Below, in pieces: positions 9,517-62,145 of a DNA stretch of 62,145 bases (its first letter is position 1; every line of letters begins with the position of its first letter). A model generated the notes under the pieces. The model saw only the letters and a program-made list of their open reading frames with translations, had not been told where the DNA came from and ran no database searches. Source of the stretch: an uncultured Bacilli bacterium (GTDB lineage: Bacteria > Bacillota_I > Bacilli_A > RF39 > UBA660); contig CANROK010000002.1 of NCBI GenBank assembly GCA_947632205.1, positions 1 through 62,145 of the forward strand, read 5' to 3'. The position numbers and the translations under genes are program-made.

Positions 9517-9936
9517 TTAAGCTTTTAAGCGTAATTTTTCAAAAAAATTTTTTAACATTTTTTCATATTGCTCTTTATCATTATTAAAAACATTTGTTTG
9601 TATTTTTTCTAATTTTCCATTTATATTATTTTTTCTCGATAATAAATAATACACTTTTTCTATTCTAGCTTCTTTAATAATATTTTCACACATTAAACAT
9701 GGTTCTAACGTAACGTACATTTCACAATTATTTAAACGCCAATCCTTTATTTTTTTTGATGCTTTTATTATGGCAATAATTTCGGCATGACCTAGCGGAT
9801 TATTACTTTTTTGACGATTGTTGTAACCTTTAGCGATTATTTTATTATTTTTAACAATTATAGCTCCAACCGGTATTTCATTTAATTTGGCTGCTTTTTC
9901 AGCTTGTTTTATTGCTTCTTTAAAAAAATCATTCAT
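9517..9936 (-). CDS. tadA: tRNA adenosine(34) deaminase TadA
   Basis: CDA zinc motifs HAEI and PCLMC. I place the start at the ATG at 9936 (MNDFFKEAIKQA). The tracked 44-aa N-terminal extension overlaps an SRP RNA gene. Confidence 0.88.
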   Translation of the reverse strand: MNDFFKEAIKQAEKAAKLNEIPVGAIIVKNNKIIAKGYNNRQKSNNPLGHAEIIAIIKASKKIKDWRLNNCEMYVTLEPCLMCENIIKEARIEKVYYLLSRKNNINGKLEKIQTNVFNNDKEQYEKMLKNFFEKLRLKA

Positions 9937-9957
9937 ATATCCTCTTATTGTTTCAAA

Positions 9958-10036
9958 AAAAGCACACACAAATAGGGATTGATGTGGCTGCTGTCTTCCA
10001 ACTCTGACCAGGTTACAATATATTTGTTGTGCCAAC
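9958..10036 (-). ncRNA. ffs: small (4.5S-type) signal recognition particle RNA
   Basis: The minus strand reads GGCACAACAAAUAUAUUGUAACCUGGUCAGAGUUGGAAGACAGCAGCCACAUCAAUCCCUAUUUGUGUGUGC followed by a U-run. It contains the domain IV core CCUGGUCAG...GGAA tetraloop...AGCAGCC. The 5' and 3' ends pair (GCACAACAAAUA / UAUUUGUGUGUGC). A -35 TTGTTA / -10 TAAGAT promoter lies upstream. Confidence 0.8.
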
Positions 10037-10079
10037 TTAATCTTATCATATTTTTTATTAATTAACAAGAAAAGTTCAA

Positions 10080-10095
10080 TGTTTCACGTGAAACA
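10080..10095. promoter_or_regulatory. parS consensus site 1 (TGTTTCACGTGAAACA)
   Basis: Exact 16-bp palindromic ParB/Spo0J centromere consensus. Confidence 0.85.
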
Positions 10096-10149
10096 TATCT
10101 TTTAAATTGTTTTATTTTTTACATATTTTATATTATTATGTAAACAAAT

Positions 10150-10165
10150 TATTTCCCGGGAAATA
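10150..10165. promoter_or_regulatory. Noc-binding-site (NBS) consensus 1 (TATTTCCCGGGAAATA)
   Basis: Exact match to the B. subtilis NBS core ATTTCCCGGGAAAT. The palindrome extends to 24 bp (10146-10169). Confidence 0.8.
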
Positions 10166-10251
10166 ATTTTGTGCAAATTATATAAGAATTGGTATAAGCT
10201 TTAATAAAATAATAGATCAAAATATATTTTTATGCAATTCTTTTTTTTAAA

Positions 10252-10267
10252 TGTTTCACGTGAAACA
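10252..10267. promoter_or_regulatory. parS consensus site 2
   Basis: Exact TGTTTCACGTGAAACA, flanked by an A-run and a T-run. Confidence 0.85.
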
Positions 10268-10372
10268 TTTTTGCTTTTTTGATTAATCAAATACTATATA
10301 CTTATTCTCATATTATTATTTAAATTAAATTTTTATATTAATTAACTTTATTAAAATATTATGTAAATTAAT

Positions 10373-10388
10373 TATTTTCTGGAAAATA
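10373..10388. promoter_or_regulatory. degenerate NBS-like site 2 (TATTTTCTGGAAAATA)
   Basis: Same position in the repeat unit as the intact NBS copies. Three mismatches to the 16-mer. Confidence 0.4.
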
Positions 10389-10480
10389 ATTTTGTGCGAA
10401 TTCTTATAAGAATAGGTAGATTTTTAATATACTACAAAAGTTAATATATTCATCTATGCGATTTTTCATAATGTATAATA

Positions 10481-10496
10481 TGTTTCACGTGAAACA
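10481..10496. promoter_or_regulatory. parS consensus site 3
   Basis: Exact TGTTTCACGTGAAACA. Confidence 0.85.
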
Positions 10497-10613
10497 TTAA
10501 TACTTATATAATATTATTATTCAAGTAAATTATTTTTCAACTTTATTAATTATGTTTTTTAAATTTATTAACAAATTATTTGATTTATTTTTTTAAATAT
10601 TATGTAAATCAAA

Positions 10614-10629
10614 TATTTCCCGGGAAATA
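10614..10629. promoter_or_regulatory. NBS consensus 3 (TATTTCCCGGGAAATA)
   Basis: Exact match. The palindrome extends to about 22 bp. Confidence 0.8.
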
Positions 10630-10722
10630 TTTTTTTTGCAAATTCTCTAAGAATTGGTATAAATGTTAATATTAAAATAATAGATCATAATGTTTTTTGT
10701 ATGCAAAACCATTTTTTTAAAA

Positions 10723-10738
10723 TGTTTCACGTGAAACA
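10723..10738. promoter_or_regulatory. parS consensus site 4
   Basis: Exact TGTTTCACGTGAAACA. Confidence 0.85.
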
Positions 10739-10816
10739 TTTTGCATTTTAGATAAATCATATATTTTTTTAATTAATAACCAACAATTAATTTAACTTTA
10801 TTTTATATAAACTAAT

Positions 10817-10832
10817 TATTTTTCATGAAATA
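10817..10832. promoter_or_regulatory. degenerate NBS-like site 4 (TATTTTTCATGAAATA)
   Basis: Same unit position as the intact NBS copies. The central CCCGGG is lost. Confidence 0.35.
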
Positions 10833-10925
10833 ATTAAATACAATTTTATAAGAATCGTTGAATTTTTAACAATGAAATACTACAAAGAACAATATATTCA
10901 CCTATGCGATTTCATAACATTTATA

Positions 10926-10941
10926 TGTTTCACGTGAAACA
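10926..10941. promoter_or_regulatory. parS consensus site 5
   Basis: Exact TGTTTCACGTGAAACA. Confidence 0.85.
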
Positions 10942-11056
10942 TTAATATTTTTATAATAATTATTATTTAAGAAAAATATTTTCTATTTTTCTTAATTATA
11001 TTTTTTGTATTTATTAACAATTATTCACTTTATTTTTAAATATTATGTAAACTAAT

Positions 11057-11072
11057 TATTTCCCGGGAAATA
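11057..11072. promoter_or_regulatory. NBS consensus 5 (TATTTCCCGGGAAATA)
   Basis: Exact match. Confidence 0.8.
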
Positions 11073-11164
11073 TTTTTTTGCAAAATTCTTAAGAATTGGT
11101 ATAAATTTTAATTAAAATAATAGATTATAATGTTTTTTTGTATGCAAAACCATTCTTTTTAAAA

Positions 11165-11180
11165 TGTTTCACGTGAAACA
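11165..11180. promoter_or_regulatory. parS consensus site 6
   Basis: Exact TGTTTCACGTGAAACA. Confidence 0.85.
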
Positions 11181-11291
11181 TTGAATTAATTTTTTAGATT
11201 ATTAATTGTTTTTCTATATAATTTTATTCAAAAATAATTGTTATTAACATTTTGATAATATCAACGTAAATTTGATGTTATGTAAACCAAT

Positions 11292-11307
11292 TATTTCCCG
11301 GGAAATA
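11292..11307. promoter_or_regulatory. NBS consensus 6 (TATTTCCCGGGAAATA)
   Basis: Exact match, about 45 bp from the gyrA stop. Confidence 0.8.
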
Positions 11308-17103: not shown

Positions 17104-17556
17104 TTAAAGCAAATTAGCACTATTTTGATAATTTAATTGATTAAATAATTTTAAATAATTAATTAATATCTTTTCAAAGCTATATTTTGATATTTTAACA
17201 TTAAAAATTATATTATTTACACACTTTATATTTAATAAATTATCTTTTATTTTATAATTTAATATTTTATTTCCTACTATAAATAAGCAATCTTCATCTC
17301 TTAAACCATATATTTGTAATAAAATAATCTTTTTTTCTTCAGAAATTATTATAGGAATTTTATATTTTATATTTAATATATTTTGGGCATATTTTCTTCT
17401 TCCTTCTAAATTACTCCCATATATTAAGCAATTATTATTTAATAATTTTTTTATATTAATGTTGAAAACTATAGTGTTATCAACATTAATTATTTTTATT
17501 TTATTATTATCTTTACAAATAGCCACAGTTTTTTCATTAATTAAATAGTTATTCAT
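17104..17556 (-). CDS. ComK-family competence transcription factor-like protein (short, 150 aa)
   Basis: Core CLIYGSNLEGRRKYAQNILNIKYKIPIIISEEKKIILLQIYGLRDEDCLFI parallels B. subtilis ComK CRFFGSSYAGRKAGTYEVTKISHKPPIMVDPSNQIFLFPTLSSTRPQCGWI (recalled from memory). Confidence 0.6.
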   Translation of the reverse strand: MNNYLINEKTVAICKDNNKIKIINVDNTIVFNINIKKLLNNNCLIYGSNLEGRRKYAQNILNIKYKIPIIISEEKKIILLQIYGLRDEDCLFIVGNKILNYKIKDNLLNIKCVNNIIFNVKISKYSFEKILINYLKLFNQLNYQNSANLL

Positions 17557-22845: not shown

Positions 22846-23484
22846 ATGGATAATTATAGCAAATTAAATGTTGATTTATTAATTGAAAATCCTAAAAATT
22901 TGAAGAAATTTAGAGAAATTGAAAAGAATATAAAAATAGAAGAGGATAATATTTTTAAAATAGATTGTGAATTAATAAAAGTAGAAAAAGATAGAGATGA
23001 AGTTAATAATAAAATATTTAAATTAAAAAATTATAAAAAAAATCATAATAAATTTGTAAGATTTTTATTAGCAATCCATACTTTTATCTTTGTAGGAGGA
23101 TTAGTATGTTTTTATTATATTGCTTCATTTCCTTTAATATATACTTTATTATTTAGTTTAATTCTTCAATTAATTATATTAGTAGGCACTATTCCAAATT
23201 ATAATTATTATATTAAAAATCTTAAAGATAGCACTTATACAAAAGAAGAATTAGAAGATAAATTAAATATCCTTGAGGAAAACAATAAAACTTTAATTAA
23301 TGAGAAGTCAATAAAATTAGCTAATATAGAATCATTAAAAGAAGAAATTCAAAACTTATTAAATCAAGAACAAAAAAATATTTCTAAAGATAGTGTAATT
23401 AGTCAAAAAATTGTGGATATACTTACTTTTGATTATGAATTAAATAATAATTTTGATGAAATGAAATTAAAATTAAAAAAATAA
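22846..23484 (+). CDS. coiled-coil membrane protein, tandem paralog 1 of 3 (unknown function)
   Basis: Shared N-terminus MDNYxKLxxDxLxEN and C-terminus NFDEMKLKLKK. It has a central two-TM hairpin and the KLANIESLKEEIQNLLNQEQ block. Confidence 0.7.
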   Translation: MDNYSKLNVDLLIENPKNLKKFREIEKNIKIEEDNIFKIDCELIKVEKDRDEVNNKIFKLKNYKKNHNKFVRFLLAIHTFIFVGGLVCFYYIASFPLIYTLLFSLILQLIILVGTIPNYNYYIKNLKDSTYTKEELEDKLNILEENNKTLINEKSIKLANIESLKEEIQNLLNQEQKNISKDSVISQKIVDILTFDYELNNNFDEMKLKLKK

Positions 23485-23503
23485 TAAATATCACGGAGGT
23501 TTT

Positions 23504-24184
23504 ATGGATAATTATACAAAATTAAGTATAGATAAATTGCAAGAAAATATAGAGAATCTCAAAAAAATTAGTGATATTAATGCTAATCTAAAGATAGAAG
23601 AAGAAAATATTTCAAAAATAGATAGTGAATTAATAGAAATAAAAAATGATAGAGATAGAATTAATGATAAAATATTTAAATTAAACAATTATAAAAAAAA
23701 TCATAAAAAATTAGTTGAAACTTTATTATTAATCCATGCTTGTGCATTTGTTGGTGGATTAATATTTGTTAATCTTGTTGAAGTTACAGTTTCTGCAGGC
23801 CTATTGCCTTTAAAAGAGAATTTATTTTTTAGTTTACTTCTTCAATTAGTTTTCTTAGCAGCTACTATTCCAAGCTATTTTTGTCTTAAAAAAAATTTTA
23901 AAGATAACACTTATACAAAAGAAGAATTAGAAGATATGATAAAAACTATTGATGAAGATATTAAATCTTTAAAAATTAAAAAAGAACAAAAATTAGCTAA
24001 TATAGAATCTTTAAAAGAAGAAATACAAAACTTATTAAATCAAGAACAAACGAATATTGAAGAAGTTTCAAATATATTAAATGCTAGAGATAATGCTATT
24101 AATCAAAAAATTATGGATATAGATACATTTGATAATAAGTTAAATAGTAATTTTGATACAATGAAATTAAAATTAAAAAAATAA
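23504..24184 (+). CDS. coiled-coil membrane protein, tandem paralog 2 of 3
   Basis: Same architecture as 22846-23484. The RBS and first ~110 nt are nearly identical to paralog 3. Confidence 0.7.
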   Translation: MDNYTKLSIDKLQENIENLKKISDINANLKIEEENISKIDSELIEIKNDRDRINDKIFKLNNYKKNHKKLVETLLLIHACAFVGGLIFVNLVEVTVSAGLLPLKENLFFSLLLQLVFLAATIPSYFCLKKNFKDNTYTKEELEDMIKTIDEDIKSLKIKKEQKLANIESLKEEIQNLLNQEQTNIEEVSNILNARDNAINQKIMDIDTFDNKLNSNFDTMKLKLKK

Positions 24185-24203
24185 TAAATATCACGGAGGT
24201 TTT

Positions 24204-24719
24204 ATGGATAATTATACAAAATTAAGTATAGATAAATTACAAGAAAATATAGAAAATTTCAAAAAAATTAGTGAAATTAATGCTAATATAAAAATAGAAG
24301 AAGAAAGTATTTCATTAATTGATAGTGATTTAAAAAAATTAGAAGAAACTAAAGGAACAACTAGAGAACGTTTATGTAATGCAAGAAATATCGATCTTTT
24401 TAAAATATTTATATTTAGTCTTTCAAGATTATATCCTCAATTAAGTTTGAATGAAATGATTCAAGATCATCTTAAAAATCTTAAAATTGATAATGCAGGA
24501 GAATTGGAAGTAAATTTATATAAAATTGATAAAGAAATTAAATCTTTAACAACTAAAAAAGCACAAAAATTAGCTGATATAGAATCTTTAAAATTAGAAA
24601 TACAAAACTTACTAAATCAAGAACAAAAAAATCTGGAAAACGTAATAAATAGTCTAAATGCTAATGATAATACAATTGATAATAATTTTGATGAAATGAA
24701 ATTAAAATTAGAAAAATAA
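24204..24719 (+). CDS. coiled-coil protein, tandem paralog 3 of 3 (TM hairpin replaced or lost)
   Basis: Conserved N- and C-terminal blocks, but the central hydrophobic hairpin is absent. Confidence 0.6.
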   Translation: MDNYTKLSIDKLQENIENFKKISEINANIKIEEESISLIDSDLKKLEETKGTTRERLCNARNIDLFKIFIFSLSRLYPQLSLNEMIQDHLKNLKIDNAGELEVNLYKIDKEIKSLTTKKAQKLADIESLKLEIQNLLNQEQKNLENVINSLNANDNTIDNNFDEMKLKLEK

Positions 24720-24738
24720 ATATTAAGAGGGTTTGGTT

Positions 24739-25281
24739 ATGTTAGAAAAGGTAAAAAATTACATAAATGATAATTTAATATATGATGATTGTAAAGAAAT
24801 GATTAATTATCATTTAAATTTATATTTATCTTTCTTTTTAAAAGATGATTATATATTAAATAATATTGAATTAAAATATGAAGAGTATCATAAATGTACA
24901 TATGTTTATTTATACTTTGATAATTTTAATGTTGTATTTTGGTTTAGGGAAAGACATTGTTGTTCTGTATCAATTGATTTTATAAATGATAAAATAAGAA
25001 TAAAAAATACTTTATTACCAAAATTTGGTATTCATTTTATAGATAATGATTGTGTATATCAATTTGGTGAAATAACTGTAGTAAAAGATAGTTTATTAGA
25101 TTTTAAAGAACTTAAAGTAGCAAAATATGATTTTAAAAATTCAGTAAATGAATATTTTGATGTTGATCTTCCACTAATAGATGGTGAAAATAATCTTAGT
25201 ATTATTTGCCAAATTATAGATAATATTAAATTAAAATATAAAAATAATTTAGTTAGAAATAGAGAATTAAATAAATTATAA
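24739..25281 (+). CDS. hypothetical protein (about 180 aa, Cys/aromatic-rich, no recognisable motif)
   Basis: Long ORF in the operon. The ATG at 24739 lies behind AAGAGGG, whereas the track begins at a TTG at 24733. Confidence 0.55.
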   Translation: MLEKVKNYINDNLIYDDCKEMINYHLNLYLSFFLKDDYILNNIELKYEEYHKCTYVYLYFDNFNVVFWFRERHCCSVSIDFINDKIRIKNTLLPKFGIHFIDNDCVYQFGEITVVKDSLLDFKELKVAKYDFKNSVNEYFDVDLPLIDGENNLSIICQIIDNIKLKYKNNLVRNRELNKL

Positions 25282-26711: not shown

Positions 26712-28571
26712 ATGTATGATGTAATAGTAGTAGGTGGTGGACACGCTGGTTGTGAAGCGGCAAATATAAGTGCCAAACTAGGAATGAAGACACTTCTTTT
26801 AACTATGAATAAAAAAAATATTGCTGATATGCCATGTAATCCTTCAATTGGGGGAGTAGCAAAGGGTATAATTGTAAGAGAAATTGATGCTCTTGGGGGA
26901 CTTATGGGTATTGTGGCAGATAAAAGTCATTTTCAAATAAAAATGCTTAATAATTCTAAAGGTCCAGCTGTAAGAAGCTTAAGATGCCAAGCTGATAAAA
27001 GAGTATATCCTAAAGTTATGCTTGAATATTTAGAGAGTAATCCTAATTTAGAAATAAAAGAGGGTTTAGTTGAAGATTTAATAATTGAAAACAATGTTGT
27101 TAAAGGTGTTATCTTAAGTGATAATACCAAAATAACTAGTAAAACGGTTATCTTAACAACAGGTACATATTTAAAATCTTCAATATTAGTAGGTAGTACG
27201 AAAAAAGATGAAGGACCACATGGAGAAGGAAGAAGTAATACTTTAAGTGATAAATTAAGAGAATATGGTTTAGAAATAATTAGACTAAAAACAGGAACTC
27301 CACCTAGAATAGCTAAAGATAGTATCGATTTTAGTAAATTAAAAGAAGAACTTGGTGATGATACTTATTATACTTTTAGTCATGATATTAAACCAGTATA
27401 TGATATAAATAACCAACAAAAGTGTTATCTTTTATATACAAATGAAAATACTCATCAAATTATTAGAGATAATTTAACTAAATCTGCTATGTATGGTGGT
27501 TATGTAACAGGAACTGGTCCTAGATATTGTCCATCTATTGAAGATAAAATAGTTAGATTTAGTGATAAAGAAAGACATCAATTATTTTTAGAACCAGAAA
27601 GTATTTATTATGATGAGTGGTACTTACAAGGATTTTCTACAAGTATGCCAACCGATGTTCAAGAAAAATTAGTTCATAGTTTAGAAGGACTAGAAAGTGC
27701 TAAAATAACTAAGTATGCCTATGCTATTGAATATGATGCTATAAATCCATTACAAATGTATCCATCTTTAGAAAATAAAATTATTAATAATTTGTTTACA
27801 GCAGGTCAAATTAATGGTACAAGTGGTTATGAAGAAGCTGCTGGCCAAGGTTTAATCGCTGGTATTAATGCTGTCCAAAAGATTCTTAATAATGAACCAT
27901 TAATATTAAAAAGAAATGAGGCATATATTGGGGTTTTAATTGATGATTTAGTAACCAAAGGAATAAAAGATCCATATCGTATGCTTACAAGTAGAGCGGA
28001 ATTTAGATTAATATTAAGACATGATAACGCTGATTTACGACTTAGAGATATTGCTTATAAATATCATACTATTTCTTCTGAACAATATGAAAGATTACAA
28101 AAGAAAAAAGAGAATATTATTAAATTAGAAGAAGAAATTAAAAATAATAAACTTGTCATTAATGAAAATATTAAACAAGATTTTATAAATAATAATTATA
28201 GTATTCCTTTAAAGAATTTAACTTATGAAGAATTATTAAAAAGACCAGAGATAACTTTTAAATTTTTAAATAAATATCATAAATTTAATTATCCAGAAGA
28301 TGTATTAGAACAAGTAGAAATATTAACTAAGTATGATGGCTATATAAATAAAGCTATAAAAGAAAGTGATAAATTAAAAAAGATTGAAGAAAAAGAAATA
28401 CCTTTAGATATCGATTACACAAAAATTAAAAATTTAGCTAGTGAAGCAAGACAAAAACTAAGTGAAATAAGACCAAAAACAATAGCTCAGGCCTCAAGAA
28501 TAAGTGGAGTTAATCCAAGTGATATAACTATATTATCTATATATTTAAAAAAGGAGTATAACAATGACTAA
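26712..28571 (+). CDS. mnmG: tRNA uridine 5-carboxymethylaminomethyl modification enzyme MnmG (GidA)
   Basis: FAD motif VIVVGGGHAGCEAA. 619 aa. mnmE-mnmG-rsmG synteny. Confidence 0.96.
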   Translation: MYDVIVVGGGHAGCEAANISAKLGMKTLLLTMNKKNIADMPCNPSIGGVAKGIIVREIDALGGLMGIVADKSHFQIKMLNNSKGPAVRSLRCQADKRVYPKVMLEYLESNPNLEIKEGLVEDLIIENNVVKGVILSDNTKITSKTVILTTGTYLKSSILVGSTKKDEGPHGEGRSNTLSDKLREYGLEIIRLKTGTPPRIAKDSIDFSKLKEELGDDTYYTFSHDIKPVYDINNQQKCYLLYTNENTHQIIRDNLTKSAMYGGYVTGTGPRYCPSIEDKIVRFSDKERHQLFLEPESIYYDEWYLQGFSTSMPTDVQEKLVHSLEGLESAKITKYAYAIEYDAINPLQMYPSLENKIINNLFTAGQINGTSGYEEAAGQGLIAGINAVQKILNNEPLILKRNEAYIGVLIDDLVTKGIKDPYRMLTSRAEFRLILRHDNADLRLRDIAYKYHTISSEQYERLQKKKENIIKLEEEIKNNKLVINENIKQDFINNNYSIPLKNLTYEELLKRPEITFKFLNKYHKFNYPEDVLEQVEILTKYDGYINKAIKESDKLKKIEEKEIPLDIDYTKIKNLASEARQKLSEIRPKTIAQASRISGVNPSDITILSIYLKKEYNND

Positions 28572-29277
28572 AGATGAATTTATTAAAGAAATTACGAAAT
28601 TAAATATTGTTTATACTAGCGATATGTTAGATAAATTAGAAATATATAAAGAATACTTAAAAGAATATAATGAATATACTAATTTAACAAGAATTACCAA
28701 TGATGAGGATATTTATTTAAAACATTTTTATGATTCTTTAACGATAATTAAAGCAATTGATTTAAATAATATTAATAATTTACTTGATATTGGCAGTGGG
28801 GCTGGTTTCCCAGGAATGGTTATAAAAATATTTTATCCAAATATTTCTGTAACTTTACTAGATTCTAATAATAAGAAAACTAAATTTTTAGAAAGTTTAT
28901 CAGAAAAATTAAATTTAAATGTAACAGTAGTTAATAAAAGAGTTGAAGATTATGCTAAAGATAATTTAAATAAATTTGATTTAGTAACAGGAAGAGCTGT
29001 AGCTAGTTTAAGAATACTTAACGAACTAGCAATACCTCTTGTTAAAAAAGATGGTTATTTTTTACCATTAAAGGCAAATATTGATAATGAATATGCAGAT
29101 GCTTTAGATACAATTAGTGTCCTTCATAGTGTAGTAGAAAAAATAATAACATTTGATTTATATAAAAATGAAGGATTAAGAAATATAATTATTATAAGAA
29201 AATTAGAAAATAGTGGGCTAGATAATTTAAGAACATATGATAAAATTTTAAAAAAGCCACTTGTAAAAAAGAATTAA
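28564..29277 (+). CDS. rsmG: 16S rRNA (guanine527-N7)-methyltransferase RsmG (GidB)
   Basis: SAM motif LDIGSGAGFPG, 237 aa. Confidence 0.93.
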   Translation: MTKDEFIKEITKLNIVYTSDMLDKLEIYKEYLKEYNEYTNLTRITNDEDIYLKHFYDSLTIIKAIDLNNINNLLDIGSGAGFPGMVIKIFYPNISVTLLDSNNKKTKFLESLSEKLNLNVTVVNKRVEDYAKDNLNKFDLVTGRAVASLRILNELAIPLVKKDGYFLPLKANIDNEYADALDTISVLHSVVEKIITFDLYKNEGLRNIIIIRKLENSGLDNLRTYDKILKKPLVKKN

Positions 29278-29313
29278 ATGGGATAGAATTAAAAGTAGAG
29301 GTAAAGGTGGCTG

Positions 29314-30309
29314 ATGAGTGTGAAAACAGAATCACAAGTTTTAAATATACCTATTGAAGATATTATACCTAATCGTTTTCAACCACGATTAAATTTTGAC
29401 GACTCATCTTTAAATGAATTAGCAAGCTCGATCAAAGAACATGGCATTATTCAACCTCTTGTTGTAAGAAAGCTTGGTGAAAAATTTGAAATAATCGCTG
29501 GCGAAAGAAGATATAAAGCTGCTAAGTTAGCAGGACTTACCTCAGTTCCAGCCGTTGTTACCGAAATGTCTGATGAAAAAAGTGCCCAAGCAGCAATAGT
29601 TGAAAATGTTCAAAGAAAAGATTTATCCGCTATTGAAGAAGCTAAATCTTATGAAAGTTTATTAGAAAAAGGGTATTTAACTCAAGAAGACCTTGCTAAA
29701 AAAATGGGGCTAAGTCAATCGGCTATTTCAAATAAATTAAGATTATTATCATTATCTAATGAAGTTCAAAAGGCCTTAATGGAAAACAAAATATCTGAAA
29801 GACATGCTAGAAGTTTATTACAGATAAAAGATCAAGATGAACAAAATACATGGTTAAAAAAAATATTAGATGAAAGGATGACAGTCAAAGAACTTGATAA
29901 TAGACTGAAAGAGAGTATGAATAATAATATTAATAGTAATGATGTTCCTTTAGTTAATTTAAATGAAGAAAAGAAAATAAATGATAAAAAAGATATATTT
30001 AGTGATTTAAATATTGAAGAAAAACCAATTCCTAATAAATTCTTTAATTTCTTAGAAGATGAAGAAGCTAATATGAGTACTAATGATAAAATTAATGAAA
30101 CTTTTACTTTACCTATTAATGAAGCAAATGATGATGTTGAAATGTTAGATTTTGTCCCTGAAAGTGCTAAAATTACTAAAGATATGAGTATTGCTAATAG
30201 TTTAATAGAAAAGCTAAAAGAAGATTTGAATCTTAACAATTATGAAATTAATGTTTTAACTGATGAATCAGATAATGAAATTAAATATATTATAACTATA
30301 AAAAAATAA
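29314..30309 (+). CDS. noc: ParB/Noc-family protein with a Noc-like DNA-recognition helix and a long acidic/Asn-rich C-terminal extension
   Basis: It has the ParB box GERRYKAAKLAG and IIPNRFQPR. The HTH region GLSQSAISNKLRLL...ISERHARSLL resembles B. subtilis Noc (GQSTIANKLRLL...ITERHARAL) more than Spo0J (SRPHIANHLRLL...SMGHGRTLL), comparing from memory. Its position after rsmG equals that of noc. No soj/spo0J follows. Confidence 0.7.
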   Translation: MSVKTESQVLNIPIEDIIPNRFQPRLNFDDSSLNELASSIKEHGIIQPLVVRKLGEKFEIIAGERRYKAAKLAGLTSVPAVVTEMSDEKSAQAAIVENVQRKDLSAIEEAKSYESLLEKGYLTQEDLAKKMGLSQSAISNKLRLLSLSNEVQKALMENKISERHARSLLQIKDQDEQNTWLKKILDERMTVKELDNRLKESMNNNINSNDVPLVNLNEEKKINDKKDIFSDLNIEEKPIPNKFFNFLEDEEANMSTNDKINETFTLPINEANDDVEMLDFVPESAKITKDMSIANSLIEKLKEDLNLNNYEINVLTDESDNEIKYIITIKK

Positions 30310-30464
30310 TGTTGATAATTAAATAGTTATTAACATTTTTTCATATTATTAATTGGAAATAAAAAAATAAAAAAATGTACTTGCAGTATTTAAATTATAT
30401 GATATAATACTTAAGAACGAAAGTTACTATACTATTATAAAGTAGTATGGCGAAAGGAGATATT

Positions 30465-30677
30465 ATGAGAGCAAATATTCATCCAGAAGTTAAAGATGCA
30501 GTTGTTAAATGTGCATGTGGTGCAACATTTAAAACTAAATCTGTAAAAGATGAGATTCATGTTGAAGTTTGTAGTGAATGTCATCCATTCTATACTGGTA
30601 CCCAAGGAAAAGCTAAGAAAACTGGAAATATTGAAAAATTCAATAAGAAATATGGTTTTGATAAAGAACAAGCATAG
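30465..30677 (+). CDS. rpmE: 50S ribosomal protein L31 (zinc-binding type)
   Basis: MRANIHPE start behind AAAGGAG. Contains CxC...CSEC cysteines and HPFYTG. Confidence 0.92.
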
Positions 30678-41854: not shown

Positions 41855-43348
41855 ATGAAAAAGATTTTAACTATTATTTTAGATGGATTTGGATTAAGAG
41901 ATGAAGTTCATGGTAATGCAATTAAAGAAGCAGATATGAAATGTTTTAATAGATTGTGGGAAGAATATCCTCATTCTAAACTTGATGCTTCTGAAGAAAA
42001 AGTTGGACTTCAAAAAGGTCAATTTGGAAATAGTGAAGTTGGCCATCTAACTATTGGAGCTGGTAGATTAATAAAGCAAAATCCAACATTAGTTAATGAT
42101 TTTATTAATAGCAATGTACTAGAGAACGAAAAATTTAATCAATTAATAGAAAATAAAGAAAAAGATATACATATTATGGGATTATGTAGTGATGGAAATG
42201 TTCATGCTAGTATTGATAATATAATTAATATGTATAAATTATTAGTTAAGAATGGATGCAAAAAAATTCATTTTCATGTTATTACTGATGGTAGAGATAC
42301 GGGAGTACATGAATCTTATAATTATATAAAGATGATAACAGATGTTATCAAAGAAAATAAAGTTGGAGATATAGCTACTATTTGTGGAAGATATTATGCA
42401 ATGGATAGAAATAAAAATTATGATAGAACTAAAAAATATTATGATTTAGTTACACAAGGTATAGGAATAAATAATTCTAATATTGAAGGTATTATTAATA
42501 AATTATATGAAAAAAATATTACGGATGAATTTATAGTACCAATATTAGTTAATAAAGATGGTTTAATCAAAAATGGTGATATATTATTATGGATGAATTA
42601 TCGGGCTGATAGAGCTAAACAAATTATTTCATCATTTGTATGTGATGATTTTAATGGTTTTAATACTTTAGATATGAGTAAACTTAGTGTGTATAGTATG
42701 TTACCAATAGATGATGATATTCCGACAGAACATTTTATTGAAGAACCAGTTATAAATAATCCTTTGGGAAGATATTTAGAAAAATTAGAGTTAACGCAAG
42801 CAAGAATTTCTGAAACAGAGAAGTATCCTCATGTAACATATTTTTTTGATGGAGGATATGAAGGTAAAATAGCTAAATGTAATATGTTTCATATTCCATC
42901 ACCAGATGTACCAACTTATGATTTGAAACCGGAAATGAGTGCAATAGAAGTTACTAAAAAAGTTGTTGAATGTATGATTCATGATTATGACTTTATTTTA
43001 GTTAATTTTGCTAATCCTGATATGGTAGGTCATACTGGTAACTTTGACGCTGCCGTTAAAGCTTGTGTAACAGTTGATGTTTGTTTAAATAAAATAGTAG
43101 AAAAAGCAGAAGAAAACTTTTATAAAGTAATAATATTAGCTGACCATGGTAATGTTGATATTATGTTAGATGAAAATGATAATCCTGTAACAACTCACAC
43201 TCTAAGTAAAGTACCTTTTATTATTTTAGATAAAAATGTTAAATTAAAAGAAAGTGGTGATTTAACTATGGTTGCTCCAACTATATTAGAGTATATGGAT
43301 ATAGCTGTTCCAGAAGAAATGAAAGAAACAGAGTTATTATTAAAATAA
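41855..43348 (+). CDS. gpmI: 2,3-bisphosphoglycerate-independent phosphoglycerate mutase
   Basis: ILDGFGL, GNSEVGHLTIGAGR, ITDGRDT and NPDMVGHTG motifs. I place the start at the ATG at 41855 (MKKILTII). Confidence 0.93.
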   Translation: MKKILTIILDGFGLRDEVHGNAIKEADMKCFNRLWEEYPHSKLDASEEKVGLQKGQFGNSEVGHLTIGAGRLIKQNPTLVNDFINSNVLENEKFNQLIENKEKDIHIMGLCSDGNVHASIDNIINMYKLLVKNGCKKIHFHVITDGRDTGVHESYNYIKMITDVIKENKVGDIATICGRYYAMDRNKNYDRTKKYYDLVTQGIGINNSNIEGIINKLYEKNITDEFIVPILVNKDGLIKNGDILLWMNYRADRAKQIISSFVCDDFNGFNTLDMSKLSVYSMLPIDDDIPTEHFIEEPVINNPLGRYLEKLELTQARISETEKYPHVTYFFDGGYEGKIAKCNMFHIPSPDVPTYDLKPEMSAIEVTKKVVECMIHDYDFILVNFANPDMVGHTGNFDAAVKACVTVDVCLNKIVEKAEENFYKVIILADHGNVDIMLDENDNPVTTHTLSKVPFIILDKNVKLKESGDLTMVAPTILEYMDIAVPEEMKETELLLK

Positions 43349-43410
43349 TGCTTGTTAAATATTTAAAAATAATGTAATATATATTATATAGATAGAGGTT
43401 AGTGTGTTAT

Positions 43411-45120
43411 ATGAATAATGAAGTAAATAATAATGAAAATTTAATGAATAATGGTGAGTCAATAGGCCAAGTTCAAACAAAAACCAATTTAGAAACTCCT
43501 TCGAGTGAAACGAATAGTACTCCTGAAGTTGCAACTTCAGTTAATAATGGAGAAACAACTTTAAATAATGAAACTCCTAAAATTAATGATGCAATCGAGA
43601 ATGTTAGTGTTGAAGATAATATATTAGGAGAAAAAAAGAAAAGTAAACTTCCTTTTATCATAATTGGAATATTATTGTTAATCTTATTATGTTTTGTTGG
43701 GTATAAATTTTTATATAAAAAAGATAAAGAATTAACTCCTAAAGAAGTATTTAGTTATAGTTTAGATAAAATTTCTGATTATGCTGTTGGAGCTATCAAT
43801 GGCTCTGAAAATATATTTGCTAGTACTTTTAAACAAACACATAAAATAAATGCTAATTTGAATACTAAAGCAGTAGATATGGCTGAGGTTAGTACAATCT
43901 TAAAGAAATTAGAAATAACTTTAAATACAGAAAATGATAATAATGCAAAATATCTTGGGGCTAATTTTAAAATAAATTATGATAATGCGGAAGCACTTGA
44001 TGCTAAAGTAATGTTACATGATAAATATTTATATTTGAATCTTGGTTCTTTATATGATAAAAATATTAGATATGAAATTGAAGGTATAGAACAGCTTACA
44101 GAAATAGAAGATAATTCTACAGTATATGTTGAAATTTTAAATGAGATAATAGCTACAATTAAAAATGAATTAAAAGAGACATATTTCTCTTATAGTAATG
44201 AAAAATTAAATAACGAAGATGTAACTAAATATACTTTAACAATTAATAGTATGAATGAATACATTAATAATATTATTAAATCATTAAAGGCAAATGATCA
44301 ATTTGTAAATAGTTTTAAAAAATTAAATATAACAACTGAAGATTTAAATACTATGTTAGATAATCTATTATTAACAGATGAAAATGAAGATGCTAAATTA
44401 ATAATTAATGTCTATTTAACTAAAAATAATGAATTATTAAAAATAAATTTAATTGTAAATGATAAAGAAGTTATTAGTATAATTAAAGATGATGGTTATG
44501 CAATTAATATTTTAATAAATGAAAAATTAGAAAGAATTGGTTCATTTAAAAAAGAAAAAGATTACACAGAATTAAATATTAATTATGATGGTGTTGTAAT
44601 GAATGTTACAATTGATAAAAGAGAAAAAATTAATAAGAATAATTTTCAATTTAAAGTAGTATGTAAAGAAGAAAATGAGGATTGTTCAAATGGTGAATTA
44701 AAAATTACAACTACAGGTGATTCTAACTCAGGTACAGTTACTTTATATGGTAATATTCCTTCTTTAGATATTGAGCTTACAATTAATGATGAATATGAAC
44801 TTCTTAAAGACGCTCCAGTTAATTTACCAGATTTTAACAATTATATAGATTTAGAAAAATTCCAAGAAACGGAAGCCGAGACAATTGAAAGAAATTTATT
44901 AAATAATAGTGGATTATTATCATTATTATCAGATTTAGGACTTATGAGTCAAAACGAAACTACAGAATTATTAAAGACATCATGTACAACTTCTAATAAC
45001 GGAAAAATTAATTATACTGAAATTGTTGATAAATATCGTGTTGAATGTCATGATGGTATATGTCAAGCAATAGATACAATGACAAATGCAATTATTGATA
45101 CAATTACTTGTGGTGCATAA
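43411..45120 (+). CDS. hypothetical single-pass membrane protein with a low-complexity N-terminus and a Cys-rich C-terminus
   Basis: TM segment LPFIIIGILLLILLCFVGY follows an ~80-aa Asn/Thr/Glu-rich cytoplasmic tail. There are five Cys in the last ~50 aa. Confidence 0.6.
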   Translation: MNNEVNNNENLMNNGESIGQVQTKTNLETPSSETNSTPEVATSVNNGETTLNNETPKINDAIENVSVEDNILGEKKKSKLPFIIIGILLLILLCFVGYKFLYKKDKELTPKEVFSYSLDKISDYAVGAINGSENIFASTFKQTHKINANLNTKAVDMAEVSTILKKLEITLNTENDNNAKYLGANFKINYDNAEALDAKVMLHDKYLYLNLGSLYDKNIRYEIEGIEQLTEIEDNSTVYVEILNEIIATIKNELKETYFSYSNEKLNNEDVTKYTLTINSMNEYINNIIKSLKANDQFVNSFKKLNITTEDLNTMLDNLLLTDENEDAKLIINVYLTKNNELLKINLIVNDKEVISIIKDDGYAINILINEKLERIGSFKKEKDYTELNINYDGVVMNVTIDKREKINKNNFQFKVVCKEENEDCSNGELKITTTGDSNSGTVTLYGNIPSLDIELTINDEYELLKDAPVNLPDFNNYIDLEKFQETEAETIERNLLNNSGLLSLLSDLGLMSQNETTELLKTSCTTSNNGKINYTEIVDKYRVECHDGICQAIDTMTNAIIDTITCGA

Positions 45121-59040: not shown

Positions 59041-59382
59041 ATGGCATATAGAAAATTAGGAAGAGAAACACGTATTAGAAGAAGCATTTTAGCAGGACTT
59101 ACAAAAGATGTTATAATGCATGAATCTATTGTTACTACAGAAGCAAGAGCTAAAGAAGTAAGAAAATTCGTTGATAAAATGATTACATATGGTAAGAATG
59201 GTACTTTAGTATCTCGTCGTATAGCTTTAGCATTTTTACATAATGATAAAGATGTTGTTAATAAAATATTTAACGAACTTGCTCCAAAGTATAAAGATCG
59301 TAATGGTGGTTATACAAGAATTATTAAACTTGCTGAACGTCGTGGCGATGATGCTTTAGAAGTTAGATTAGAATTAGTATAA
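59041..59382 (+). CDS. rplQ: 50S ribosomal protein L17
   Basis: [14 protein letters not shown] start and [10 protein letters not shown] motif. Confidence 0.96.
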
Positions 59383-59383
59383 A

Positions 59384-59408
59384 AATTGAGAGTTTTCTCA
59401 ATTTTTTT
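59384..59408 (+). terminator. intrinsic terminator of the alpha operon
   Basis: AATTGAG-AGTTTT-CTCAATT hairpin followed by a T-run. Confidence 0.75.
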
Positions 59409-59494
59409 GTTCTTTCAAATAGTAATAACACATGTTACTATTGCAAATAAATAGTTATTATTGTATTATATAGATTACTAGAAAGAGAGTGTTT

Positions 59495-59974
59495 ATGGAA
59501 GAACAAGAAAGATTATTTATAGAACTATATAAAATACTTGATGATAATAAAGATAAGAATATTGAAAATGATAGAATAAGAAAATATAAAGAATCAGAAA
59601 AAATAATTGTTAATCATAGTAAATATGAATATAATCTATTATTAAATGAATTTAGTTGTTTTATTAAAAATATTTTAAAAGATTATAGTAATGAAAAAGA
59701 TATATTAATTAATAGATGTATTAGTGAAAAAGAAATAGTATATTCCGATTATTATACTAAAGACGCAATTAATTATTTAAAACTATTTTTAGAAAGAAAT
59801 AACTTAGGAGATATTTTATACAATAAAATAATAATATGGCATAATAATATTACTATTGCAGATTTAATTAATAGTTATTTAGAAGATTTAAATACTTTAA
59901 AACGTATAATAATGGAAGAAGATATAGGAATTACATTAAGTAGAAAAAGAAATGGAGAGAAAGATGAAAAATAA
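59495..59974 (+). CDS. hypothetical protein, short paralog of the following gene
   Basis: TTGCAA-17-TATTAT promoter at about 59443-59471 and an AAAGAGAG RBS. It shares the ...KYEYNLLLNEFSCFIKN...YSD...IIWHNN...DLINSYLEDLNTLKR block with 59952-60881. Confidence 0.55.
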   Translation: MEEQERLFIELYKILDDNKDKNIENDRIRKYKESEKIIVNHSKYEYNLLLNEFSCFIKNILKDYSNEKDILINRCISEKEIVYSDYYTKDAINYLKLFLERNNLGDILYNKIIIWHNNITIADLINSYLEDLNTLKRIIMEEDIGITLSRKRNGEKDEK

Positions 59975-60881
59975 TTTCTATGAAATTGTAAAGAATAATG
60001 GGGAAAAAGAAAGTGAATTAAAAGTAAAAAGAGAGGAAGAAAGAGAAAAGGTAAGAATAATACTTAAAAAAGATGCTTATAGTAAATATAAGTATTATAT
60101 GCAAGAATTTCCAAGTTTTATTTCATCAGTAATTAATAATTATTCAGATCTTAATACGAAACTAACTAATGTTTCTTTAGATAATATTAGTATTAGTTAT
60201 TCAAGTTATAATAAAGAATACAATTATAAACATTTACAAGAATTTCTTAATAAGTATGCTCTAGGTACAATTGAATGTAACTCTATAATATGGAATAAAA
60301 ATAAAACAGTAAAAAACTTTATCGATGCTTATTATCAAGAACTTACATTATTAGAAGAAAGATTAGTAACTATTGAAGATCTAAAAGAACAATATTTAGA
60401 TTTATTAGAACATGATAAAGAAGTATATGGAAGTTTAATAAGTGATAAGTTATATAAATATTATTATTTAAAAAATTGTGATTTCAATAATATATCTTGT
60501 AAAATCCTATATTATTTACAATATTGGTTTGAAAAATATAACTATAATTTAGGTTCATTTGATACTCGGGAATATGATATTTCTGTATATGATGGTTCTG
60601 CAATATGGGAAGAATGTCATCCAGATCCAACATTTCATAATTTCTATTATAAAGAAATTCAATTAAGTAGTACATTATATAAATTATTAGAAGGTACAAC
60701 AAAATTTGATATTAACACTATTGAAAAAGAAGATTTAGAAAAATTAATAAGAGATATCAAAGCATTAGAATTACCTGATGATTTAGAAAAACCAGTTGAA
60801 AAAGTAGAACAACCAAGAGAAGCTAAAAAAGTAAATGTTAGTAGATCAAGAATATATAAAAATAATCATAATAGGCAATAA
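59952..60881 (+). CDS. hypothetical protein (309 aa) whose N-terminal half is paralogous to 59495-59974
   Basis: Shares KYKYYMQEFPSFISSVINNYSD...IIWNKNKTVKNFIDAYYQELTLLEERL with the upstream gene and overlaps it. The start is the ATG at 59952 or 59964. Confidence 0.55.
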   Translation: MERKMKNNFYEIVKNNGEKESELKVKREEEREKVRIILKKDAYSKYKYYMQEFPSFISSVINNYSDLNTKLTNVSLDNISISYSSYNKEYNYKHLQEFLNKYALGTIECNSIIWNKNKTVKNFIDAYYQELTLLEERLVTIEDLKEQYLDLLEHDKEVYGSLISDKLYKYYYLKNCDFNNISCKILYYLQYWFEKYNYNLGSFDTREYDISVYDGSAIWEECHPDPTFHNFYYKEIQLSSTLYKLLEGTTKFDINTIEKEDLEKLIRDIKALELPDDLEKPVEKVEQPREAKKVNVSRSRIYKNNHNRQ

Positions 60882-60906
60882 ATTACTCAAACGAGTAATT
60901 TTTTTA
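60882..60906 (+). terminator. intrinsic terminator
   Basis: ATTACTC-AAAC-GAGTAAT hairpin followed by TTTTTT. Confidence 0.75.
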
Positions 60907-61038
60907 TTTCATCTTTTTACTGATATTTCATTTTTTACCATGATATATCTTACCAACTAAATTAAAATTAAAGTTAGAGTAGTGTATGAATAATAAATAT
61001 GGTAATATACACTAAAAAAATGAAACGGAGGTGAAATA

Positions 61039-61716
61039 ATGGAAAAGGATAGAAGTGCAAGATTAATCGCTATAGTTGCCTTAGTTTTAGCAGTTACTGG
61101 TGTTTCAATTGGTTTCGCCGTTTTAAGTACTAACTTAACTATTCAAGCACCTGAAGCAAGCGTTAAAGCTAATAATGATTTATTTACAGTGTATTTTTCT
61201 GCTATTCCTATAAATTATCAAACTGGTCAAGTATCTCCAGAATTAAAACCATCTGCTGATGTAAATTTTGAAGGTAACAAAATAAATGTAGATGATAGTT
61301 CTACAACATTATCAGGAATTGGTGGAACATTTACTAAACCAGGACAATCTATTACTTATGCTATTGGAGTATCTAATAAAAGTAAATTAGATGGTTATTT
61401 AACTTCAATTACATTTAGTGATGTTGAAAGTGGTAAAAAAGTTAAATGTGAACCAGTTACTGATACTAATCCGATAGGTGTAGATGAAATGAACACTATT
61501 TGCGATAATATTAAAGTCTCTGTTAAAGTTAATGACACTGAGTATAATACTGATCAAGCCAGTCTTCAAAATATAAAAATTACAAAAGAAAGCACAATAC
61601 CATTTACTGTAATTATTAAATATGATGACGCTGCTGTACCTGCAACTGGAGATTTTAAAGCAACATTTGGTAATATTGTCTTAGGATTTAAAACACAAGA
61701 CAATTCAGGAGATTAA
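61039..61716 (+). CDS. secreted or signal-anchored hypothetical protein (225 aa)
   Basis: N-terminal RLIAIVALVLAVTGVSIGFAVL hydrophobic segment, then a beta-rich Ser/Thr/Asn domain. A GGAGGTG RBS lies upstream. Confidence 0.65.
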   Translation: MEKDRSARLIAIVALVLAVTGVSIGFAVLSTNLTIQAPEASVKANNDLFTVYFSAIPINYQTGQVSPELKPSADVNFEGNKINVDDSSTTLSGIGGTFTKPGQSITYAIGVSNKSKLDGYLTSITFSDVESGKKVKCEPVTDTNPIGVDEMNTICDNIKVSVKVNDTEYNTDQASLQNIKITKESTIPFTVIIKYDDAAVPATGDFKATFGNIVLGFKTQDNSGD

Positions 61717-62119
61717 GTATAAATATAAAATATATTCAAGCATAAGCTTGTAATATATTTTCACAAGACTATTTGGGAGATGAGAAATGAAAAGAGGGTA
61801 TAAAAGATTACTTATATTTGAATTAATATTATTAATTATTTTAATTCTAAATAGTTTTGAATAAATGTAACTATTCAGACTAATTCATGTTAAACGAGAG
61901 CTTTATAAAGAATGGCTCTCTTTTTAATTAAATAAAGTTTTGCTATTAAATATACAACACAAAAATGATAAAAACTCGCCATAATAAAACCCTTATTGCA
62001 AAAGGATGGATATTTGATGAATAATCAACTATCAAACTTCGGTTAAAATTAAAGTTAGAGTAATGTAAGAATAATAAATATGGTAATATACACTAAAAAA
62101 ATGAAACGGAGGTGAAATA

Positions 62120-62145
62120 ATGGAAAAGGATAGAAGTGCAAGATT
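62120..62145 (+). CDS. 5' end of a second copy of the 61039-type gene (truncated by the window end)
   Basis: Segment 62043-62145 repeats 60962-61064 with 2 mismatches, covering promoter, RBS and the MEKDRSAR start. Confidence 0.5.

Follow-up and report, generated by a model that had tools for sequence, protein, structure and literature searches.

A Noc-like protein without the usual membrane anchor, and an interleaved parS/NBS array, in uncultured gut Bacilli

The origin region of an uncultured Bacilli bacterium raises the question of which protein reads its parS sites. In the 62,145-nucleotide stretch analysed here (contig CANROK010000002.1 of assembly GCA_947632205.1, referred to throughout as the window), the one ParB-family gene resembles noc, and an array of parS sites is interleaved with Noc-binding sites (NBS). 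The original prediction, made from the window by itself, asked whether the product of this noc-like gene is an intermediate or dual-specificity ParB/Noc and, if it is not, what reads the parS sites. The puzzle has an ordinary solution: the organism has a Noc as well as Soj and Spo0J, and the window ended 2 kb early. Taken as a whole, we consider it probable that an anchor-less Noc acts on NBS, that a separate Spo0J-type ParB acts on parS, and that a motif in the linker of the Noc-like protein serves as its effector. The DNA side of this reading is well supported; its effector side we infer.

Identity and DNA specificity of the noc-like protein

Judged by its sequence, the noc-like gene appears to encode a real Noc-clade protein without the usual membrane anchor, a modified form that is probably the lineage's only noc orthologue. 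The best sequence matches among solved structures were Noc of Geobacillus (199 bits), B. subtilis Noc (183) and Spo0J (176). A Foldseek search with the AlphaFold model of the protein ranked Noc first, and the model's DNA-binding domain superposes on the Noc DNA-binding domain-NBS complex 6Y93 with a template modelling (TM) score of 0.88-0.90 and a root-mean-square deviation of 1.4-1.9 Å. Family profile alignment gave 48% identity to Noc (score 327) as against 45% to Spo0J (score 299). In a neighbour-joining tree of 205 columns and 200 bootstraps, with two Noc and three ParB sequences as references, the family was monophyletic in 99% of replicates and grouped with Noc, apart from the ParBs, in 96.5%. 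Alignments to PDB 6SDK and 7OL9 agree with the B. subtilis sequences used as queries in the search of the window described below. Overall similarity lies only modestly on the Noc side. The main grounds for the identity are the recognition region, the tree and the position of the gene; the first of these, the adjacency to rsmG and the small tree uphold the earlier label 'Noc-like'. A second, full-length noc was not found, which argues that the gene is not an ordinary divergent paralog.

The recognition region is what sets the protein apart from ParB. At positions 173, 179, 184 and 201 (Caulobacter ParB numbering) it carries Q-K-S-R, compared with Q-K-K-R in Noc and R-H-T-G in Spo0J. The region quoted in the original prediction, GLSQSAISNKLRLLSLS...KISERHARSLL, is present in the reading frame, and alignment bears out the proposed Gln, Lys and Arg at Noc-type positions with Ser in place of one Lys; the residues are not of ParB type. 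According to Jalal et al. (2020; PMC7383237), adenine 1 of NBS is recognised by Q173 and cytosine 6 by R201, and these two residues need no more than one Lys, at 179 or 184, to be NBS-specific; in their 16x16 binding matrix and deep mutational scan, parS-binding variants always keep R173. Because one Lys is enough in this published mutagenesis, the Q-K-S-R protein is predicted to bind NBS specifically and not to be an intermediate. Parts of the rule come from a Caulobacter ParB scaffold, and the supplements of that study do not list per-variant scores for QKSR or QKAR.

The serine at 184 is typical of the family, in which Ser, Asn or Thr is the norm among some 270 relatives. The combination QKSR occurs in 118 of 270 family sequences, QKNR in 97, QKTR in 23 and QKAR in nine; Gln is found at 173 in all but nine sequences and Arg at 201 in all but two, and the ParB pattern RxxG in none of the 270. 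A sister subfamily (P0161, P0162, P0167, P0169, P0175, P0202, P0204, P0209 and P0266; contigs L127-L129) departs from this: position 173 is occupied by Leu, Val, Glu, Thr or Ala, the recognition helix is changed, and most members start MNF[DE]S. The DNA site of this subfamily could differ from NBS, and its contigs are too short to show sites. We considered this MNFDS subfamily as a second, parS-reading paralogue and rejected it: in L127 and L128 the gene adjoins rsmG, which makes it an orthologue in a sister lineage.

The reading frame itself is as first described, with 331 amino acids (aa), an ATG start and an in-frame TAA (29302-29304) that excludes a longer N-terminus. The public gene call (P0001) begins two codons later, at GTG 29320, and gives 329 aa. 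Pfam places ParB_N at residues 8-100 and HTH_ParB at residues 102-201, and two AlphaFold runs, with 22 and 122 sequences, were confident over residues 9-204, the N-terminal and DNA-binding domains. The cytidine triphosphate (CTP)-binding motifs do not vary among 122 homologues. In Noc the counterparts of R66 and N98 are R89 and N121, both required for CTP binding (PMC8429893).

Within the window, the original statement that the gene has no soj/spo0J partner holds. A six-frame phmmer search of the 62 kb with B. subtilis Soj, Spo0J and Noc matched this open reading frame (ORF) alone, confirming it as the sole ParB-family gene of the window, and returned no other ParB and no ParA. Beyond the right end the statement fails. 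An exact-product look-up of the last complete ORF (61039-61716) led to a 9.3-kb contig, L211 (ENA ERZ27249097), which overlaps window positions 59054-61866 over 2814 bp at 99.82% identity. Past the overlap, L211 encodes an S26 signal peptidase, a DUF5305 protein, a ParA (261 aa, KGGVGKT), a ParB (294 aa), a DUF951 protein and AbgT. In window-equivalent coordinates the ParA gene would start at ~64161, which is 2.0 kb beyond the right end of the window and 34 kb away from noc. The ParB is 43% identical to B. subtilis Spo0J end to end, including the ParA-activating peptide and the C-terminal domain, and has the N-terminal LGRGL motif and GKSR. An identical ParB is present in four independent assemblies, and the sample that yielded L211 also holds L006, a contig with an identical noc product. 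An ordinary candidate for reading the parS sites is thus encoded ~2 kb past the window. The premise that the organism has no other protein available for this is not supported, and the first half of what the original prediction had named as counting against it, a canonical soj-spo0J operon, exists in L211 and in relatives.

The same arrangement recurs across the clade. A search with the L211 ParB returned 120 orthologues (P0391-P0510) at 73-100% identity. One contig of GCA_017466775.1 carries the Noc-like gene (42,977-43,981) and the ParB gene (145,579-146,460), with ParA just upstream of the latter, and the 81.5-kb contig CANQAK010000002.1 holds ParAB together with a parS/NBS array; this contig is exactly as long as the longest one that encodes the Noc-like protein P0005. 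The conserved context in the clade is rpoA, rplQ, 0-3 genes, parA, parB, DUF951, abgT, ychF ... rpsF, ssb, rpsR. No other ParB or ParA was seen within 10 kb of the noc-like gene in close relatives (among L001-L004 and L130-L142), or in the 8-kb stretches around 120 arrays. Deeper gut-metagenome relatives keep the ancestral order, which is rsmG, Noc-like, ParA, ParB in L136 and L139 and Noc-like, ParA, ParB in L137. Their ParBs are canonical (N-terminal LGRGL, GKSR, SMGHAR). The Noc-like proteins of these relatives are likewise without the N-terminal helix; their linkers are very long (stop-to-stop frames of 368-519 aa) and carry a related motif, [RN][FI][IV]NYGEI. A search with the ParB of L146, dominated by strain variants of one abundant gut species, returned a split soj-spo0J-DUF951-ychF-rpsF cluster. 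From the conserved context it follows that the ancestral noc-soj-spo0J-...-ychF-rpsF block was severed between noc and soj and reattached behind the alpha operon. Beside the split parAB of an abundant human-gut relative stands a pair of bAvd and reverse-transcriptase genes (L210, 113-1547), the signature of a diversity-generating retroelement.

The missing membrane helix and the linker

Eight residues, and not the nine first counted, precede the first conserved strand (VLNIP), some 21 residues fewer than in B. subtilis Noc. The 10-aa amphipathic membrane-targeting helix of Noc and the helix that follows it have no counterpart, in agreement with the original prediction, and the short N-terminus is family-wide: typically 16 residues stand before PNRFQPR, compared with 39 in Noc. 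At E <= 0.001, 90,910 representatives of 50%-identity clusters matched the protein; in the best-scoring 150 the alignment almost always starts at target residue 2-8, indicating that those homologues share the same short N-terminus. In Noc, removal of the 10-aa helix abolishes liposome binding and impairs nucleoid occlusion (PMC8429893). Such a family of Noc proteins, with a long linker and no anchor and spread widely among uncultured gut Bacilli, is new. As a large natural family that lacks a helix essential in B. subtilis Noc and instead has a conserved amphipathic peptide in its linker, it is a natural test case for the coupling between CTP switch and effector.

What was earlier described as a C-terminal extension of ~130 aa is in fact a disordered linker (residues 205-290) followed by what appears to be a ParB/Noc-like C-terminal domain (residues 291-331). 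The AlphaFold confidence score (pLDDT) was below 50 over most of the linker in both runs, and linker length varies greatly among homologues, whose total lengths range from 227 to 982 aa. The C-terminal domain was modelled in both runs at pLDDT ~80-86, with a helix at 292-307 and strands at 311-318 and 323-330. By eye, the sequence pattern of KDMSIANSLIEKLKEDL..YEINVLTDES..IKYIITIKK, at the terminus, is similar to that of the final 42 residues of B. subtilis Noc; profile alignments end at about residue 200 and gave no significant match to this domain. Residues 291-331 are likely a dimerisation domain.

Two short motifs stand out in the linker. In the first (IPNKFFNFLEDExxNM, with the core [KR]FFNxLE), N241, F244, N245, L247 and E248 are invariant in 122 sequences, and distant subgroups carry the variants NRFFNNLEDE, NKFFNQLEDV and GKFFNSLEDE. 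It is the linker's only amphipathic segment, with a hydrophobic moment of 0.59 (0.50 for the B. subtilis Noc membrane helix), and AlphaFold drew a helix there at 243-252 or 245-249, depending on the run. Its sequence, NKFFNFLEDE, resembles that of the Noc membrane helix, SRFFGLGEKE. In the second motif ([ED][IV]E[ML]LDF; ExLDF), L278 is invariant in the 122 sequences and I275, E276, D279 and F280 are at least 90% conserved. Given the amphipathicity of the first motif and its likeness to the Noc helix, we propose it as a stand-in; our best guess is that [KR]FFNxLE replaces the missing N-terminal membrane helix.

An alternative that we regard as possible, if on balance unlikely, leaves the DNA side unchanged and does away with membrane contact. 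[KR]FFNxLE and ExLDF would then dock a protein partner, such as a divisome component, SMC or a polar factor, and the noc-like protein would be an origin-proximal adaptor and not a membrane tether. Two sharply conserved short motifs in a disordered, acidic linker are typical of short linear interaction motifs, some homologues have a second KFF copy, and acidic flanks disfavour binding to anionic lipids. Moreover, the canonical CTP-gated autoinhibition, in which the N-terminal helix is held against the N-terminal domain (PMC8429893), cannot work likewise from a linker. The first motif, however, is like the known Noc helix in both sequence and amphipathicity, and an acidic stretch (GEKEQEPE) likewise follows the helix of B. 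subtilis Noc. In neither AlphaFold run, the second with 122 sequences, did the motif dock on any of the protein's own domains, a result that carries no information on partners.

The parS/NBS array and its readers

Pattern searches recovered the six perfect parS sites of the original prediction in a non-coding array at 10080-11307, where they mostly alternate with NBS. For parS there were six matches in the window against 0.02 expected; for NBS, with up to three mismatches allowed, five against 0.40. The NBS sites of the array are the only ones in the window, and we predict that they are the loading sites of the noc-like protein. Promoter-like elements beside NBS were also considered and set aside: the 27 matches did not differ significantly from the 19.4 +/- 4.6 found in shuffles, and they are not conserved across species.

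Such arrays are common in related genomes. A scan of species-representative genomes found at least 120 loci (L007-L126) with NBS and parS 80-110 bp apart, all in low-GC metagenome-assembled genomes, mostly from animal and human gut. They are labelled mainly as Bacilli, Tenericutes, Mollicutes, Mycoplasma sp. and Erysipelotrichaceae, with a few others such as Muribaculaceae; one, 'Mycoplasma sp. CAG:611', we take to belong to the GTDB order RF39. Beside the array lies gyrA in 100 of the 120 loci and tadA in 93, and some arrays repeat a tight 75-82-bp unit in tandem and contain each site in 12-13 copies. The related loci hold 363 perfect NBS sites, and in a comparison of 101 species the two palindromes are conserved and their flanks are not. 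The literature searched contained nothing relevant on such arrays, or on Noc in RF39, Tenericutes or Erysipelotrichia; parS and NBS arrays downstream of gyrA, at no fewer than 120 loci of species-representative genomes, are new.

The two kinds of site are sharply distinct. When the 922 sites of the window and related loci were classified, 545 were pure parS, 367 were pure NBS and ten had one variant half-site; none joined a parS half to an NBS half, and none was a symmetric G1/C6 or A1/A6 site. So clean a division is consistent with one specific reader for each class, a Spo0J-type ParB for parS and the noc-like protein for NBS.

The ParB of this clade has a peculiarity of its own. All 120 orthologues carry R-L-[K/N/R]-S at the four specificity positions, with xSHAR where ParB has MGHGR, whereas the deeper relatives and the L146 species have Gly at position 201. 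R173 and G201 have been published as invariant in extant ParB; Ser in place of the supposedly invariant Gly201 is new. The mutational scan accepts Ser201 in variants specific for parS, and the same residue is also typical of dual-specificity variants (PMC7383237).

It is conceivable, although we think it doubtful, that the Ser201 ParB is relaxed and binds NBS as well as parS, the array serving ParB and the Noc-like protein as a common platform, for competition or for co-assembly. All 120 orthologues share R-L-[K/N/R]-S, as noted above; among the scan's dual-specificity variants T or S predominates at 201, with K or R permissive at 184 (PMC7383237); and in many species the two kinds of site interleave at short, fixed distances. 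Yet S201 is also allowed in strictly parS-specific variants, dual binders bind both sites more weakly (PMC7383237), the two site classes are perfectly distinct, as they would be with two specific readers, and the scan was made in a Caulobacter ParB scaffold. A bolder version, to which we give somewhat less credence still, sees a compound centromere in the array: the interleaved sites would load two CTP clamps, the Ser201 ParB and the anchor-less Noc, the latter now an origin-tethering partner. If this were true, ParB may have acquired relaxed parS/NBS specificity, the effector peptide of Noc would have moved into the linker, and Noc would have shifted from a nucleoid-wide division inhibitor to a partner of the partition complex. 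The published invariance of R173 and G201, and the question whether dual-specificity states are ever used in nature, are both touched by the arrays and the Ser201 ParB, and we regard these two as more interesting leads than the noc-like gene itself.

The idea that gave rise to the question, an intermediate or dual-specificity protein that is the organism's sole member of the ParB family and reads both parS and NBS, now seems very improbable. It drew on the lone ParB-family ORF in the 62 kb, on the Ser at one of four Noc positions, and on parS and NBS being neighbours in one array. It is already largely refuted by the soj-parB operon ~2 kb past the window and throughout the clade; in addition, Q173 and R201 with one Lys are NBS-specific and parS binders always have R173 (PMC7383237), the variation at 184 is the family norm, and the 922 sites form separate classes without hybrids. 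That the gene is a decaying, functionless remnant, left after loss of the helix whose removal impairs nucleoid occlusion by B. subtilis Noc (PMC8429893), is scarcely credible, being contradicted by the intact reading frame, by 72 columns invariant in 122 homologues (among them the CTP motifs, the recognition helix and the linker motifs), by the same short N-terminus in nearly all of the best 150 of 90,910 representatives, and by perfect NBS sites kept in more than 100 species.

In the reading we favour, a CTP-binding protein of ParB fold with Q135, K141 and R163 would load on NBS and not on parS, using the four perfect NBS of the origin-proximal array as loading sites, and its C-terminal domain, apparently retained, would dimerise it. 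The adjoining parS sites would most likely be read by the separate Spo0J-type ParB, encoded with Soj; the classic noc-soj-spo0J cluster would have been split by a rearrangement that left the rpmE-to-rplQ block in between. With the [KR]FFNxLE motif taking over the role of the missing N-terminal helix, NBS-loaded clamps would still anchor the DNA near the origin, either at the membrane or on a partner associated with it.

Several points weigh against this reading. On identity, the tree is thinly sampled. Against the NCBIfam model for Noc, TIGR04285, the protein aligns to positions 1-196 out of 255 and reaches 273 bits, short of the curated cut-off, 315 bits; on the same model B. subtilis Noc scores 373 and B. 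subtilis Spo0J 257, which places the noc-like protein about 16 bits above Spo0J. Within the N-terminal domain, the stretch AGERRYKAAKLAGL is nearer to Spo0J than to Noc. On the ParB side, Ser and not Gly at 201 leaves the specificity of the clade's ParB itself uncertain. At the right end of the window, the last ~280 bp (61867-62145) diverge from L211 and cut off the start of the S26 signal peptidase gene, and public contigs, at ~5x coverage, fragmented, and with loose ends that match neither continuation, leave this junction unconfirmed. The final 103 bp repeat a segment ~1 kb upstream (L211 1909-2011), which suggests that the assembly broke at a repeat. The adjacency of parAB in this exact strain accordingly depends on the 99.8% identity, co-occurrence in the sample and conserved synteny. 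On the effector side, acidic residues follow the [KR]FFNxLE motif, its helix was modelled at low confidence (pLDDT ~50-60), and it may equally be a protein-binding peptide.

Gene neighbourhood and relation to known systems

The window, with a G+C content of 25.7%, is an origin region, and its features are collected in Table 1. The sequencing runs that hold its sequence are rabbit-gut metagenomes; the organism is from rabbit gut, and the noc-like lineage is one of uncultured, low-GC gut Bacilli. The gene order is recR, dnaX, tadA, SRP RNA, array, gyrA, gyrB, recF, a ComK-like ORF, dnaN and dnaA, followed past the origin by rnpA, yidC, jag, mnmE, mnmG, rsmG, the noc-like gene and rpmE and, later, by ribosomal protein operons. 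The original account of the neighbours, rsmG upstream and rpmE instead of soj-spo0J downstream, was correct, and rsmG adjoins the noc-like gene in every relative seen (L001-L004, L127, L130-L142).

Table 1. Features of the window and of the contig that extends it
Feature	Position	Strand	Details and basis
tadA ORF	9517-10068	-	183 aa as listed; TadA match from residue 48
Bacterial small signal recognition particle (SRP) RNA gene	9948-10043	-	Rfam RF00169, 51 bits; between array and tadA
Non-coding array between gyrA and SRP RNA gene	10080..11307	.	pattern searches, repeat analysis
Six perfect parS	10080, 10252, 10481, 10723, 10926, 11165		in array
Four perfect NBS (TATTTCCCGGGAAATA)	10150, 10614, 11057, 11292		in array
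Two decayed NBS-like sites	10373, ~10816		in array
rsmG (gidB)	28564..29277	+	directly upstream of noc-like gene; ORF; Pfam GidB on identical contigs L005, L006
Shine-Dalgarno sequence AAAGGTGG	29303..29310	+	strong, ahead of noc-like ORF; read from sequence
noc-like gene	29314..30309	+	331 aa, ATG start; ORF list and sequence
N-terminal ParB/Srx domain, residues 9-100	29338..29613	+	Pfam ParB_N, 1.2e-34
CTP-binding motif PNRFQPR	29368-29388	+	sequence
CTP-binding motif GERR	29500-29511	+	sequence
CTP-binding motif ENVQR	29602-29616	+	sequence
Helix-turn-helix DNA-binding domain, residues 102-204	29617..29925	+	profile alignments to Noc, Spo0J
Specificity residue Q135	29716-29718	+	profile alignments, MAFFT columns
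Specificity residue K141	29734-29736	+	profile alignments, MAFFT columns
Specificity residue S146	29749-29751	+	profile alignments, MAFFT columns
Specificity residue R163	29800-29802	+	profile alignments, MAFFT columns
Acidic, Asn-rich disordered linker, residues 205-290	29926..30183	+	net charge -12; AlphaFold, composition
First linker motif IPNKFFNFLEDEEANM, residues 239-254	30028..30075	+	short amphipathic helix; conservation, AlphaFold
Second linker motif DDVEMLDF, residues 273-280	30130..30153	+	conservation
C-terminal domain, residues 291-331	30184..30306	+	one helix and two strands; AlphaFold
rpmE (ribosomal protein L31)	30447..30677	+	after noc-like gene in place of soj-spo0J; ORF; Pfam Ribosomal_L31 on L005
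Spo0J-type ParB	L211 5883-6767 (~64936-65820 window-equivalent)		294 aa; outside window

The SRP RNA gene lies between the array and tadA, so the listed tadA ORF is over-extended at its 5' end; the last parS (10080-10095) stands just upstream of the RNA gene. Between recF and dnaN, a 150-aa ORF (17104-17556, minus strand) has no NCBIfam match, and its counterpart in relatives matches Pfam ComK. L001-L004 have a single perfect NBS in the ComK-dnaN spacer (around 770-920), where the window has none. Between jag and mnmE lie three tandem paralogous ORFs (22846-24719, plus strand; 212, 226 and 171 aa) that start MDNY[ST]KL; they look like coiled coils, a hydrophobic segment is present in two, and Pfam gave no match for any of them. 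They are followed by a fourth ORF without assignment at 24733-25281. In L001-L004, mnmE comes directly after jag, without these ORFs.

As far as is known, Streptococcaceae have lost noc. There the ancestral Firmicutes cluster, dnaA-dnaN-recF ... gidA-gidB-noc-parA-parB, was likewise broken by rearrangement and parA was lost (Garcia et al. 2021, PMC8136486). In the lineage described here the break falls between noc and parA, and noc, parA and parB are all kept; the block parAB-DUF951-abgT-ychF has been attached where the ribosomal alpha operon ends.

Compared with chromosomal ParB/Spo0J (B. subtilis, PDB 6SDK), the noc-like protein has the common fold and CTP motifs at 44-45% identity, and has Gln and Arg in place of R173 and G201. 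Its N-terminus, MSVKTESQ, is without the LG[KR]GL ParA-activating peptide, and its gene is not beside parA; the true Spo0J orthologue, which has both a peptide of the LG[KR]GL type and a neighbouring parA, is encoded separately. With Noc (B. subtilis and Geobacillus thermoleovorans; PDB 7OL9, 7NFU, 7NG0 and 6Y93) it shares the N-terminal domain of ParB fold with its CTP motifs, the helix-turn-helix with Q173, R201 and one permissive Lys, 47-49% identity across the two N-terminal domains, a C-terminal domain that by eye looks similarly patterned and a gene position right after rsmG, and the genome contains perfect 16-bp NBS sites of the B. subtilis consensus. It differs from Noc in the absence of ~21 N-terminal residues (the membrane helix and the helix that follows), which makes it resemble the laboratory truncation NocNdelta26; in Ser, Asn or Thr for Lys at position 184 across the family; in a linker of ~85 aa, reaching several hundred in relatives, with two conserved peptide motifs; and in the confinement of the window's NBS sites to a single array interleaved with parS.

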